This document shows, in pieces, positions 3,689 through 42,431 of a stretch of 60,007 nucleotides of DNA; positions within the stretch are counted from its first letter, which is position 1, and each line of letters starts with the position of its first letter. The DNA comes from Desulfurococcaceae archaeon (GTDB lineage Archaea > Thermoproteota > Thermoprotei_A > Sulfolobales > NBVN01), in the NCBI GenBank assembly GCA_020833255.1, contig JAJHQR010000002.1:1-60007 (forward strand), written 5' to 3'. The translations under genes and the position numbers were made by a program. The notes under the pieces were generated by a model. The model saw nothing but the letters and a program-made list of their open reading frames with translations. It was not told the origin of the DNA and ran no database searches.

Positions 3689-4225
3689 CTAAGTCCCTGA
3701 GGCCTGGGAAAGCCCACCATCTATTATCGTGTAACCGGAAAACCTTAGCTCACTAACTTCAGTTCCTACTATCTTAGCTACCTCAGACACGTAATCCATC
3801 AGCTTTCTAGTCTCACTCACTAACCTAATTTTGTAGAAGACGGAGATACCGTCACCCCTCACGACTACCTCACCCCCGGACTTAATGAGTTCAGGGTAAT
3901 ACTTAGTGAAAAAACTCAGCGCTTCAACGTCTTTCGAGATCGCGATCTCTACACGAACCCACTCAATCAACCCCACCCCACATAAGTACGAGAAGATAAC
4001 GTTGACGTTAGGTAGTATCCGGGAGTTTGTCACGAAGAACATCATGGCTTCCTTAGAACCGCTGGATTCTAAGTCACTCAATATCCACTCGAAATCCTCT
4101 ACAGGAACTAAACCCCCTACAAAGTCTATCAACTTCTCTAGAGGGAACATGCGGTCACCGCACCACGGACAGGCCCCTATGCCGTGAAGTTTAAAGACGT
4201 GGCACCCGCACACATCCTGAATCAA
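3689..4225 (-). CDS. Hypothetical protein with an N-terminal Cys/His cluster (CGCH..CPWCG)
   Basis: 178-aa ORF overlapping the stop of the upstream rpoP-like gene by 4 nt (translational coupling). No family recognised. Confidence 0.5.
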   Translation of the reverse strand: MIQDVCGCHVFKLHGIGACPWCGDRMFPLEKLIDFVGGLVPVEDFEWILSDLESSGSKEAMMFFVTNSRILPNVNVIFSYLCGVGLIEWVRVEIAISKDVEALSFFTKYYPELIKSGGEVVVRGDGISVFYKIRLVSETRKLMDYVSEVAKIVGTEVSELRFSGYTIIDGGLSQASGT

Positions 4226-38941: not shown

Positions 38942-39125
38942 TTCTCACCGTTTCTCGGTAGGTAGTGGTTCGTTTTAAGACTCCCCACCACCTACTTCCC
39001 AACGGTCTCTCCGAGCCCCCTCACCGCAGTAGCTCACCCCTGTCGCCAGAGGCTTCAAAGCCCTATGGATCTCGGAAGCCCGAAGACACCAATTAAACAC
39101 AAGCTTCTGAGCATATAAATCTGAA
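38942..39125 (-). repeat. Copy A of the ~150-nt structured end module plus adjacent promoter-like stretch (solo or miniature derivative of the TnpB-like element)
   Basis: The reverse complement aligns by hand with 41768-41949. TTTAATTGGTG (11/11) and CTACCGAGAAACGG (14/14) are identical, and roughly four-fifths of positions match in between. The terminal hairpin arms are 38958-38968 and 38985-38995. Confidence 0.75.
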
Positions 39126-39286
39126 ATCATGAAGAGACGTAGTCTAGACAAACACACAACATCAACGCACCTCACAACATTAAGAAGTCTTAGACATCAA
39201 TAAATACGAGCACTGTAAATGAATGTAGAGCTGAAACAGCCCATACTTAAATTTCACTCTTCAGTTTAAGATATTTGGTGTGACTC

Positions 39287-40256: not shown

Positions 40257-40353
40257 CACCAGCCAAAGACTCAGACCCAAAATATAATTATAACCTAGAC
40301 TTAAAAACAGCGAACGCGTAGAAACCAAAAACACTGAAACCATGAGAGAATAG

Positions 40354-40428
40354 TGGGCCCGCGGGGACTCGAACCCCGGACCTCCGCCGCGTCAGGGCGG
40401 CGTCCTAACCAGGCTAGACGACGGGCCC
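40354..40428 (-). tRNA. tRNA-Val (anticodon GAC)
   Basis: The minus strand reads GGGCCCG TC GTCT..AGGAC G CCGCC CTGACGC GGCGG AGGTC CGGGG TTCGAGT CCCCG CGGGCCC A. This folds as a full cloverleaf of 75 nt with no encoded CCA. A TTTAAAAG box lies about 27 nt upstream. Confidence 0.9.
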
Positions 40429-40665
40429 TAAATAAATATTGATATAACTTTTAAAGTTTTTGTTACGTGGTGAGGTCTTGATCTCACACGCTACTCATTC
40501 CGGAAGCTATGGCTTATAAGCTTAACGTGATTATGTGGTGCGGCGGTTTGATGAGGAGCGATTCGGTTAGGGAATTGCTGGTGCGTGGCTTCAGCGACTT
40601 CAGATCCGTGCTTAGAGGTAACGTTGGGCTGTTTCGGTCTTCATAATCATTTGTAGTACTCATAT

Positions 40666-41757
40666 TCATTGATTTCTGAGACCTCTTAACGCTATTAGAT
40701 ATGCTGATGCTGTGTGTCTGTCTATTCCATATCTCTTCATAGCTTCATCATGTTCTTCAGAATTTGTTGTTCCTTTTGGGTCTACATATTTAGCTTCTAT
40801 GCCATATAGCGGTGCTTTCAACGCTATCATCTCGATGACAGAGCTCCTGAAGACTGAGACCTTGTAGTTGTAGTTCTCATGTTTTCTATCGCCGTCTCTA
40901 ACCCATAGAAGCTTTAGCTTGCTGAAAACCTCTGGATTCTCTAAAAACAATATTTTAACGTTGTGATGATAGGCGTAGCTAAGCATTTCACGAATCTTCG
41001 CACCTATAATGCTTCTAGCGTTCCTCCTTGAAAACCCTCTAGCCACTGCCTCTGAGAACCAGAAGGTTTTGCAGTCCCGCAGGTTCCCTTTCTCATCAAT
41101 TATTGCTAGGTTTAGCCTGTCTACATTTACATCTATACCGCCTATGAGACTACCTTTAGATTCTCTGTATCTTGTCATGTGATTGTAGTAGAAGTCTGTA
41201 GGTATTGTTATCTGAATTTCTCCACGAACCCATAGATTATATTTTCTAATGCCATAGCTCTTCACAGCTACTCTACCTGTGTACTTTTGTCTCTCCTCTA
41301 ACATTTTGTCTAGGAGAGGCTCGTAGCTTTTTGGTATGATGGGCTCCACCACGTCTCTGTAGGTGTTTTTGTTGTAGTCTACTGTTGTTATGTGAAACTC
41401 AAGACCTGATTTGAGAGTGATGTTTCTTGCTGGATACTCTAACTCGCTCTGCTGAAACAGCAGCCAGTTAGAAAGCTCAACACTTTTTAAATCTATCCTA
41501 AATTGTCTGCATGACTCATAGATACTTCTAACAAGTGTTACAACACTGTCAGCATACCTCCTATTAGGTATGATCTCGTAGGCTATCTCTCTAAAAGTGT
41601 TCTTCCAGCCAATATCAGTAGCTGGAAGAACAGGAAAGTGTTTAACAACATTAAGCAATCTATGCGTAGCGATCTTAAATAGCCAAGCAGTAGACAAAAG
41701 CCTCTCCGCAACATCACAACAGACATTAAATGGAAACACGAGCGTTATATAGGTCAT
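40666..41757 (-). CDS. tnpB: TnpB/IS605-OrfB-like RuvC-fold protein lacking the zinc ribbon
   Basis: 363 aa. It has RuvC-I GGIDVNVDRLNLAIID (D209), RuvC-II KILFLENP (E273) and the block NYKVSVFRSSVIEMIALKAPLYGIEAKYVDPKGTTNS. RuvC-III is GIDRHTASAYLIALRG (D346). No CxxC pairs lie between E273 and D346. Confidence 0.6.
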   Translation of the reverse strand: MTYITLVFPFNVCCDVAERLLSTAWLFKIATHRLLNVVKHFPVLPATDIGWKNTFREIAYEIIPNRRYADSVVTLVRSIYESCRQFRIDLKSVELSNWLLFQQSELEYPARNITLKSGLEFHITTVDYNKNTYRDVVEPIIPKSYEPLLDKMLEERQKYTGRVAVKSYGIRKYNLWVRGEIQITIPTDFYYNHMTRYRESKGSLIGGIDVNVDRLNLAIIDEKGNLRDCKTFWFSEAVARGFSRRNARSIIGAKIREMLSYAYHHNVKILFLENPEVFSKLKLLWVRDGDRKHENYNYKVSVFRSSVIEMIALKAPLYGIEAKYVDPKGTTNSEEHDEAMKRYGIDRHTASAYLIALRGLRNQ

Positions 41758-41800
41758 CTGGGGAATCCCCGGTAAGGTTTATAAGCTCTCAAAGCTTACA

Positions 41801-41949
41801 TTTTAATTGGTGACTCCGGGTTTCCGAGACCCGTAGGGCTGTGAACCCTAGGCGACTAGCGGTGAGCCACTGCGGTGAGGGGGCTCGGGGAGACCGTTGA
41901 GAAGCAGATGGTGGATGAACCACCATCTACCGAGAAACGGCGGTGATAA
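41801..41949 (+). ncRNA. Copy B of the structured end module; candidate scaffold RNA transcribed outward and divergently from the tnpB-like gene
   Basis: A TTTAATT box sits at 41802-41808. Stems are 41864-41868/41882-41886 and 41906-41914/41920-41928. Substitutions relative to copy A keep pairing only on this strand (G:U wobbles). There are no conserved ORFs, and indels separate the copies. Confidence 0.4.
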
Positions 41950-42431
41950 GAGGTCTTGAGTTCAACGGGTTGAGGTTCAGCGAGTACCTAGTCAACTCTT
42001 CAGCTCTAGGTTATTTAGGGATTCCAGTAATTTTCCTGGCCGGTGACGAGAACCTAAGGACTGAAGTAGAGAGGTATACGCCCTGGGTAGTTTTCACTTC
42101 GATGAAAGAATCGTTGAGCAGGTATTCAGCTAAGAGTCCAGCGCTAAGCAAGGTCTTGAGGGATCTAGAGTCGGGAATTAAGGAAGGGTTGAGAAGATAT
42201 TCCGAAGGCTTAACGAGACCTCTAACGATAGAAACCCCCGTCACCGTCAGGGTGAGCTTTCACGAGAGCGGGTTCGCCGACATCGCGGAACTCTTGCCGA
42301 TCGTGAGGAGGGTTGATGGCGTGACCGTGGAGTACAGAGCGCAGAACCCTCTAGAAGCCTACAAAATACTGGAAGTCTTGATAATGGCTTCCCATGGCAT
42401 AAGACTAATAACTGAGGTTCAGTTGAGGTAG
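41943..42431 (+). pseudogene. 5'-truncated D-aminopeptidase DppA-like (peptidase M55) fragment
   Basis: 162 aa align to roughly the C-terminal 60 percent of M55 proteins (GLEFNG..LGYLGIPVIFLAGDENL..). The N-terminal ~110 aa are missing, the frame is closed by a TGA at 41916, and homology starts exactly at the element boundary. Confidence 0.55.

Follow-up and report, generated by a model that had tools for sequence, protein, structure and literature searches.

The closest described systems to the one considered here are transposons that encode TnpB-family proteins and the corresponding guide (omega) RNAs. The only consistently conserved feature of the TnpB omega-RNA scaffolds is a 3' stem-loop within 10 nucleotides (nt) of the guide, and the scaffold/guide boundary in these RNAs is located by the drop in sequence conservation (Nety et al., PMC10278001). 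Among the TnpB-carrying transposons, the IS607 elements lack inverted repeats, generate no target duplication, carry GG at the termini and insert at (G)GG targets (PMC6188088), and in CboIStron, a member of the IS607 family, the target of the transposase and the target-adjacent motif (TAM) of TnpB are the same sequence, 5'-TGGG-3', whereas the scaffold ends with ...UCGG (10.1101/2023.11.20.567912). A major TnpB clade, RIIIr-4, is defined by the loss of the zinc finger and the replacement of the RuvC-III Asp with His (Altae-Tran et al. 2023, PMC10691335); archaeal TnpBs linked to RHH or MazE genes belong to this clade, the guide is expected to reside in a long 3' untranslated region, and the MazE-linked genes are considered to be non-mobile and toxin–antitoxin-like (PMC10691335). 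Here we analyze a 60,007-nt stretch of DNA from a Desulfurococcaceae archaeon (contig JAJHQR010000002.1, positions 1 to 60,007 of the forward strand; hereafter, the window) that contains, at 40625-41941, an element combining a TnpB-family gene with a divergently oriented structured RNA module. This element is probably an IS607-type non-autonomous transposon in which the TnpB-family gene and an omega-RNA gene are positioned back to back on the two sides of one TATA box.

The limits of the element were defined by BLAST comparison with 44 archaeal loci that were recovered using a 19-mer from the RNA module (L-numbers below are labels of retrieved loci, most of which are contigs of metagenome-assembled genomes, or MAGs). 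The unit of homology among the full-length copies is 40625-41941 (~1,317 bp), which we consider to be a complete non-autonomous transposable element. The full copies in L014 and L037 show 91-92% identity to the window copy over 40625-41915 and 41914-41941, and none beyond these positions; the nearest copies are found in Desulfurococcales MAGs, Caldivirga MU80 harbors five copies with exactly the same span, and several diverged copies per genome all have the same limits. A preliminary description of this DNA had delimited the element as 40465-41949, but the segment 40465-40624 is common to no other copy, and the homology ends at 41940/41941. To the left of the element, at a distance of ~140 nt, the sequence GGTGAGGTCTTGA (40467-40485) resembles the first bases of the right flank, GGTGATAAGAGGTCTTGA (41942-41965), that is, the predicted guide; this likeness may be the source of the earlier start at 40465, and it may also be fortuitous.

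In approximately 20 further loci, 40625-40711 is fused directly to 41777-41941, resulting in gene-less miniature derivatives (MITEs) that are reduced to the two ends plus the promoter and RNA gene. The left-end segment kept by the MITEs (40625-40711, plus strand) consists of the last 15 codons of the protein gene and the 41 nt past its stop codon. One such derivative, copy A, is located in the window itself, on the minus strand at 38948-39243 (296 bp, no protein gene); its right end and scaffold occupy 38948-39100, it has its own TATA box, and its left end is degenerate, with GGG at 39240-39242 and T at 39243. The preliminary description had noted a second copy of the RNA module at 38942-39097, and this repeat is indeed present in inverted orientation at ~38948-39100, with 82% identity, but as a part of the complete MITE rather than as a lone module. 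In L004, a MITE is nested within a degenerate module, at a GGGGG|CTCGG site.

The predicted omega-RNA-like scaffold (41806-41940, plus strand; ~135 nt), for which the start was placed from the TATA spacing and the end, ...AACGG, from the drop in conservation, folds into the helices P2 (41814-41825/41879-41890), P3 (41831-41839/41866-41875), P4 (41845-41851/41856-41863), P6 (41894-41898/41936-41940) and P5 (41904-41914/41920-41930), all mapped onto an alignment of 34 copies on the plus strand. In this alignment, 95.9% of the cells in the helices are paired, compared to 41-53% for controls in which the 3' partners were shifted by 1-3 columns, and 14 pairs are altered on both sides. A covariance model built from the same alignment was run on 78 loci that were retrieved by the protein, not by the RNA. 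Among the 45 best matches, 94.1% of the cells pair and 35 of the 44 pairs show compensatory change, although the fitting of this alignment to the model biases these figures somewhat toward the structure; in P5, compensatory changes were detected across the family for all 11 pairs. The folds of the module copies also yielded z-scores of -4.6 and -6.3 against shuffled sequence, but shuffle controls overstate significance because related copies share ancestry; stronger evidence comes from the controls with shifted partners and from the large number of distinct pair types. An alternative helix between the 5' leader and 41893-41902 (P1alt) was rejected because at two positions only 7-11 of the 34 sequences could pair, and the covarying P6 was preferred. 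A search of Rfam with the module produced no match at the gathering threshold or with E values up to 10.

The pairing also identifies the strand. Comparison of copy A with the module of the full-length element (copy B) reveals 12 differing pairs, namely, 3 double changes, 6 wobble-compatible changes, 1 repaired mismatch and 2 breaks; thus, the differences in the stems mostly preserve pairing. The pairs U24-26·G84-86, G22·U88 and U37·G75 (numbering with 41798 as 1) form on the plus strand and become A·C mismatches on the minus strand. Because the G·U pairs fit only that strand, as had been recognized for copy B in the preliminary description, the RNA strand is the outward plus strand.

Within the scaffold, a kink-turn (K-turn)-like GA/GA motif is located at 41843-41844/41864-41865 (plus strand), in a Kt-7-like context, GGC-UGU-GA-ACC/GGU-GA-GCC (41837-41847 with 41861-41868). 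In many relatives, the sequence CCGU-GAU-GA-ACC...GGU-GA-ACGG at the 3' junction of the scaffold closes the last helix and resembles C and D boxes. A strict K-turn pattern is found in about one third of 60 modules at each of the two sites; given that these motifs are not universal, we treat them as a lead only, and binding of L7Ae, suggested by the motif sequences, is a matter of speculation.

The scaffold terminates sharply at the right end of the element. Across 90 copies, the final AACGG is conserved (the right end reads ...CGG, with the last two bases being G in 87 and 76 of the 90 copies, respectively), position +1 is a pyrimidine in 83, and beyond it, starting with position +2, all four bases occur with nearly the same frequency. 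Helix P5 ends at 41930, 10 nt before the end of the scaffold at 41940. Thus, both the sharp loss of conservation at the right end and the 3' stem-loop lying no more than 10 nt from where the guide begins that characterize omega-RNAs are present. The terminal hairpin had been described previously as 41906-41914/41920-41928, about 20 nt from the junction; the hairpin itself is there, extended by two pairs, but the distance is 10 nt. These features support the earlier proposal of a scaffold RNA reading outward into the flank, with a length of ~135 nt rather than ~120 nt. The guide would be provided by read-through into the flanking DNA and is predicted to occupy 41941-41960 (plus strand), with a length of ~16-20 nt assumed by analogy with TnpB.

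The RNA and the protein gene are separated by a single TATA box, TTTATAAG (41778-41785), with 20 nt to the ATG on one side and 23 nt to GGTGAC on the other, a spacing that makes this box a candidate bidirectional promoter that could fire both ways. In 40 of 41 copies, MITEs included, the TATA box starts 29-37 nt upstream of P2, and L104 shows the same geometry as the window copy. From this spacing, the RNA is predicted to start near 41805-41810. In the preliminary description, the promoter was assigned to TTTAATT (41803-41809) and the start to 41825-41835; both were misplaced by ~25 nt because TTTAATT falls at the predicted 5' end of the RNA, and a start at 41825-41835 would remove the 5' strand of P2 (41814-41825), a helix supported by covariation. 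The intergenic space of the window copy is 48 nt long and contains no small open reading frame (ORF). Between the TATA box and the ATG lies a conserved palindrome, GGGGAATCCCC (41760-41770), and GGGG-N3-7-CCCC palindromes occupy the same position in most clade-1 loci (e.g., GGGGATTCCCC, GGGGCTTAAGCCCC and GGGGTATATATCCCC); the palindrome possibly represents an operator, the 5' end of the mRNA or a 5' hairpin.

The linkage between the RNA module and the protein gene is conserved far beyond the window. In ~55 of the 78 loci retrieved by the protein, the module is located directly upstream of the gene and divergent from it; with all loci oriented to put the gene at ~4001 of the plus strand, the minus-strand module maps to ~3785-3959. 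These loci represent several orders, a Thermococcus MAG being among them, with protein identity as low as ~40%. In a clade with 31% identity, the same divergent module was detected in six loci. The 3' region of the gene, where a canonical co-oriented omega-RNA would be located, extends for 12-41 nt past the stop codon and is A-rich, and RNAalifold analysis of 34 sequences detected no structure on either strand. The conservation across loci and the lack of structure at the 3' end imply that the divergent arrangement is a rule of the family rather than an accident of the window copy. The arrangement, with the RNA upstream and on the opposite strand, indeed differs from the co-oriented, 3'-overlapping omega-RNA (reRNA) layout, as the preliminary description had emphasized.

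Two variants of this organization were observed. In the sister clade (L133, 2371-2517; also L128 and L134-L138), an ORF of 48 amino acids (aa) overlaps the start of the nuclease gene and lies between the nuclease and RNA genes. By eye, its product appears AbrB/MazE-like (YIPKELSEK...VVIRVTV), but it yields no Pfam match; the clade probably corresponds to the published 'MazE-TnpB' group. In L105 (3828-3982, plus strand) and L111 (3154-3294, plus strand), the native divergent module is accompanied by a second scaffold, which belongs to another subfamily and points in the same direction as the nuclease gene. The insertion site of this additional copy is the GGG within the promoter-proximal palindrome, and its terminal AACGG is separated from the ATG by only ~10 nt. 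The 3' guide of this second scaffold would be the start of the element's own gene. Such loci may have originated by nested insertion followed by deletion, or they may represent a self-directed or leader variant.

The ends of the element resemble those of IS607. At the left junction of the window copy, the sequence 5'-TGGG-3' (40625-40628, plus strand) is a candidate TAM and target motif that contains the GG crossover dinucleotide, and together with the scaffold end AACGG at 41936-41940 it conforms to the IS607 TnpB scheme; the two ends read GGGCTGTTTC... (left) and ...GAGAAACGG (right). Read in the RNA direction, the left junction is W|GGG; in 63 of 66 copies, the run comprises three or more G, and the base in front of it is T (32 copies), A (27) or C (7); thus, a TAM-like motif, (T/A)GGG, does exist in the flanks, as the preliminary description had suggested looking for, at the junction opposite to the RNA end. 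Neither consistent terminal inverted repeats nor a target duplication was found among the copies; the pentamer GTTTC, inverted at both ends, was tried as a terminal inverted repeat and rejected because it does not covary between subfamilies. The absence of inverted repeats and duplication, combined with (T/A)GGG on the left and ...CGG on the right, indicates ends of the IS607 type, not the IS605 type. The hallmarks of IS200/IS605 are missing: there is no left-end hairpin (RNAalifold of 34 sequences revealed no conserved secondary structure in 40625-40711 on either strand), the junction is WGGG, and no Y1 transposase gene is adjacent to the window copy. The alternative raised in the preliminary description, that the terminal hairpin is recognized by an IS200/IS605 TnpA, therefore fits poorly with IS607-like ends, which imply a serine recombinase, although, as in known TnpB elements, the hairpin may have a dual role, in the DNA end as well as in the RNA.

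A likely empty site was identified for one MITE. Locus L045, which originates from a species other than that of the MITE-containing locus L032 and carries ...GAAGGGTCC..., reads ...GAGAAGGGTCCTGG..., compared to ...GAGAAA|GGGCTG...AAACGG|CCTGGG... in the filled site of L032, so that the MITE is inserted at GGG without duplication. Exact-pattern searches of metagenome contigs found no empty sites of the two window copies, and a search with the neighboring cupin protein as the query recovered only the same genome. Joining the flanks of the window element produces an in-frame ORF, which was considered as the empty site and rejected: given that the left flank supplies nothing of the N-terminal half of Peptidase_M55, the fusion is fortuitous and the empty site is not defined by it. 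The ORF abutting the right end (41943-42431) encodes only the C-terminal half of a Peptidase_M55 (D-aminopeptidase; Pfam profile positions 122-263 of 264), and the N-terminal half is not found in the window near the element; the remnant may reflect a deletion that accompanied the insertion, or the gene may have been a remnant already.

The left end contains a short direct repeat, TCATAATCATT/TCATATTCATT (40641-40651 and 40660-40670), and inverted ATGAA-type repeats are present in the expanded P5 loop of many long-form modules (e.g., L037 and L047). Short direct repeats are a feature of IS607 ends, and by analogy, both sets of repeats could be transposase binding sites. With regard to the genomic context of the copies, weaker extra module copies are found 0.3-3 kb from full-length elements (L204, 3891-4025, plus strand; L136, 1394-1573, plus strand; L071, 959-1087, minus strand), which suggests clustering of insertions. 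In six loci, a tRNA-Val(GAC) gene is located 0.2-3.5 kb from an element copy, at varying distances and orientations (40353-40428 in the window; L038, 3066-3141; L044, 1718-1810; L083, 6174-6251; L054, 3184-3258; L082, 2427-2504), compared to ~0.5 loci expected by chance according to a rough estimate.

The protein gene is intact at the position given in the preliminary description (40666-41757, minus strand; 363 aa) and is, as noted there, more AT-rich than its neighbors, albeit modestly (39-42% GC against 44-52% around it). The precomputed Pfam assignment of the product is PF27229 (SSO2105_N). The RuvC-I D209 (in GGIDVNxDR) and the RuvC-II E273 are invariant among 34 homologues, and among 32 distant homologues, E273 again shows no variation, whereas D209 is retained in at least 90%. 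In RuvC-III, the motif is D346-R-H348-T-A-S-A, compared to the canonical D-R-D-x-N-A-A, with a nearly invariant His in the catalytic position (this motif was aligned by eye, with a result consistent with how PMC10691335 describes RIIIr-4). Of the previously proposed catalytic triad, D209 and E273 hold, but D346 is the first, non-catalytic Asp of the motif, the catalytic position being that of H348. Furthermore, the C4 zinc finger between RuvC-II and RuvC-III is missing, with ~15 residues and no Cys pairs between ...DPKGTTNS and GIDRH. The protein thus combines both traits of RIIIr-4, and these shared features, rather than a tree placement, suggest that it belongs to this clade.

A phmmer scan of 1.84 billion cluster representatives retrieved just 211 relatives, no relatives were found in the phage collection, searches of PDB (at the sequence level) and PHROG produced no matches, and PADLOC yielded weak Cas12f matches only; a profile built from a diverse alignment was too divergent for locus retrieval. 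Foldseek comparison of the AlphaFold model with PDB gave Cas12f-gRNA complexes as the best matches (9n9c_A, E 8e-8; 7l48_A, E 5.5e-6), and hhalign aligned the protein over 328 columns (99.6% probability, E 8.6e-25) with a 516-aa "TnpB-related" Peptoclostridium plasmid protein. The latter, the nearest annotated relative, is encoded directly downstream of an IS607-family transposase, and it also lacks the zinc finger and also has the His. With the protein being TnpB/Cas12f-like by these comparisons and the stems covarying in 34 and in 45 copies, the computational checks proposed in the preliminary description all turned out in its favor, and none of the sequence findings that the preliminary description had named as contradicting it was obtained.

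The proposed life cycle of the element can be outlined as follows. Firing leftward, the TATA box would yield a leaderless mRNA for the zinc-finger-less TnpB-family protein; firing rightward, it would produce the ~135-nt RNA, with the last helix and the 3' stem-loop abutting the right end and the transcript continuing into the flank. On this basis, the divergent RNA would be the omega-RNA of the 363-aa protein, with a 5' scaffold and a 3' guide derived from the flank. A TnpA of the serine recombinase family, supplied in trans, would excise the element at the GG termini, resealing the donor site as (T/A)GGG followed by the guide-matching sequence; the ribonucleoprotein would then recognize the TAM and the target and cut, and repair from the sister copy would restore the element. 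Homing or retention by donor-site cleavage has been shown for both IS605 and IS607 TnpB. Mobilization in trans appears necessary because the ~60 full-length copies have no room for a second gene, and, as had been noted previously for transposase genes adjacent to the element, no transposase ORF was found within ~4 kb. The MITEs, which keep only the ends, the promoter and the RNA gene, would have to borrow both proteins in trans.

Several observations weigh against this scheme. The W-GGG motif of the left junction is short and degenerate, and the sole empty site comes from a different species, with 78% identity and a 1-nt ambiguity. The copies within a genome are 76-80% identical, a divergence that does not point to recent transposition of the full-length elements, and neither the window nor any copy was found to contain a serine recombinase. 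The catalytic Asp of RuvC-III (DRDxN or NADxN) is replaced by His, and accordingly DNA cleavage is not assured: judging from its sequence, the H348 enzyme may cut, nick or merely bind. No member of RIIIr-4 is reported to be active in the consulted text of PMC10278001. Curated TnpB profiles match the protein only below their thresholds (Pfam Cas12f1-like_TNB, 12.6 bits with a cut-off of 26.3; TIGR01766, 16.4 with a cut-off of 32; guided_TnpB, 12.9 with a cut-off of 100), and the AlphaFold model is of moderate quality (pLDDT 72, below 50 for residues 273-331). Finally, the plus-strand transcript and its 3' extension into the flank are predictions.

Among the alternatives, it is conceivable but doubtful that the RNA regulates the element instead of guiding the protein, through competition for the TATA box, sequestration of the protein or K-turn-dependent (L7Ae-binding) control of the nuclease gene. 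A regulator of this kind would account for the single TATA box between the two genes and the conserved palindrome at the mRNA start, the 5'-leader-like second scaffold that is co-oriented 10 nt upstream of the ATG in L105 and L111, the K-turn-like motifs in about one third of the 60 modules, and the related clade with the AbrB/MazE-like small ORF, for which a toxin–antitoxin role has been proposed (PMC10691335). However, the RNA does not overlap the mRNA, the MITEs keep the RNA gene but no protein gene to regulate, and a regulator does not require the 3' end of the scaffold to coincide with the boundary of the element, as it does in 90 copies.

It also seems unlikely that the module is chiefly a right end that a trans-acting transposase binds at the DNA level, with an incidental transcript that guides nothing. 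The retention of the module in the MITEs fits this possibility, as do the ATGAA-type short repeats, which are found in the P5 loop and, in inverted form, at the left end, and the placement of the hairpin where the right-end hairpins of IS200/IS605 are located; moreover, such elements need ~40-60 bp per end (10.1101/2023.11.20.567912). Yet a multi-helix structure of ~135 nt maintained by compensatory changes goes far beyond the needs of an end, the strand-specific G·U pairs point to RNA, the TATA box is conserved at the promoter distance, the left end has no comparable structure, and hairpins would be of no use to serine recombinases, the substrate of which is double-stranded DNA. A domesticated, defense-type or toxin-like RNA-guided pair, similar to RHH/MazE-TnpB, in which the RNA directs binding or repression rather than homing, would be compatible with the RuvC-III His substitution, the old, diverged copies, the small AbrB-like ORF of L133-L138 and the classification of the MazE-linked relatives as non-mobile in PMC10691335, but is improbable given the absence of a small ORF from the 48-nt intergenic space of the window copy and the transposon behavior apparent in the MITEs, the many insertion contexts and the IS607-type junctions.

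We thus favor the IS607-type transposon with a back-to-back omega-RNA gene, and its components can be compared with the known systems one by one. With CboIStron, it shares the lack of inverted repeats and duplication, the GG termini, the (T)GGG insertion site that doubles as the TAM (a candidate TAM in the present element), the scaffold ending with ...CGG at the right end and the right flank as the guide (here, a predicted guide), and the nearest annotated relative of the protein adjoins an IS607 transposase. However, the RNA of CboIStron has the same orientation as tnpB, lies past the 3' end of this gene or overlaps it and is excised from the tnpB transcript, whereas here the RNA gene is located upstream of the protein gene, runs in the opposite direction and has its own promoter; furthermore, the present element lacks a cis-encoded tnpA, an intron and a zinc finger, and the RuvC-III Asp is substituted by His. 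The IS200/IS605 TnpBs (ISDra2 and AmaTnpB; PMC10278001) are similar to the predicted RNA of the element in the order of the 5' scaffold and the 3' flank-derived guide, and to the element itself in the sharp right-end boundary, the stem-loop within 10 nt, and the existence of non-autonomous tnpB-only copies and miniature derivatives, but the present element shows no Y1 logic, left-end hairpin or 4-5-nt target of the TTAC/TTGAT type, and its RNA gene has a separate promoter and the orientation opposite to that of tnpB.

The protein itself resembles RIIIr-4 and the RHH/MazE-TnpBs of PMC10691335 in lacking the C4 zinc finger, in the Asp-to-His replacement in RuvC-III, in the archaeal (crenarchaeal and euryarchaeal) distribution and in the 31%-identity sister clade with the AbrB/MazE-like upstream ORF; contrary to the expectation expressed there, the RNA is upstream and divergent, the 3' region of 12-41 nt is unstructured, and the element is a transposon with MITEs. 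An upstream guide RNA gene at the element end is also typical of IscB/IsrB, but there the omega-RNA is co-oriented and carries the guide at the 5' end, and the protein family is Cas9-like. Cas12f with its tracrRNA/crRNA provides the best structural matches of the protein and RNA components transcribed apart from the protein gene, but in the present element there is no CRISPR array and no repeat/anti-repeat, and the guide would be fixed by the insertion site. Literature searches found no description of a guide-RNA gene that has its own promoter and is located upstream of tnpB in the opposite orientation. The clade of the protein, the hallmarks of omega-RNAs and the logic of the IS607 junctions had all been known before; it is the gene layout that we did not find described.

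The broader proposition, that a whole TnpB branch characterized by the missing zinc finger, the active-site His and occurrence in hyperthermophilic archaea uses an outward, head-to-head guide-RNA gene with its own promoter, along with guide-only MITEs and perhaps L7Ae as a co-factor, has in our judgment an even chance of being correct. If the proposed organization is real, a major TnpB clade would gain the RNA partner that it has been lacking and become directly testable with a thermostable protein of 363 aa that lacks a zinc finger. Searches at the 3' end of the gene would then have looked in the wrong place, and pipelines that examine only the downstream region would miss this class and could mislabel such genes as guide-less or immobile. 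The gene-less MITEs would represent free-riding 'guide-only' elements. More generally, omega-RNA genes could be uncoupled from the tnpB transcript and inverted, an uncoupling that could plausibly have led toward type V CRISPR systems, in which the RNAs are transcribed separately.

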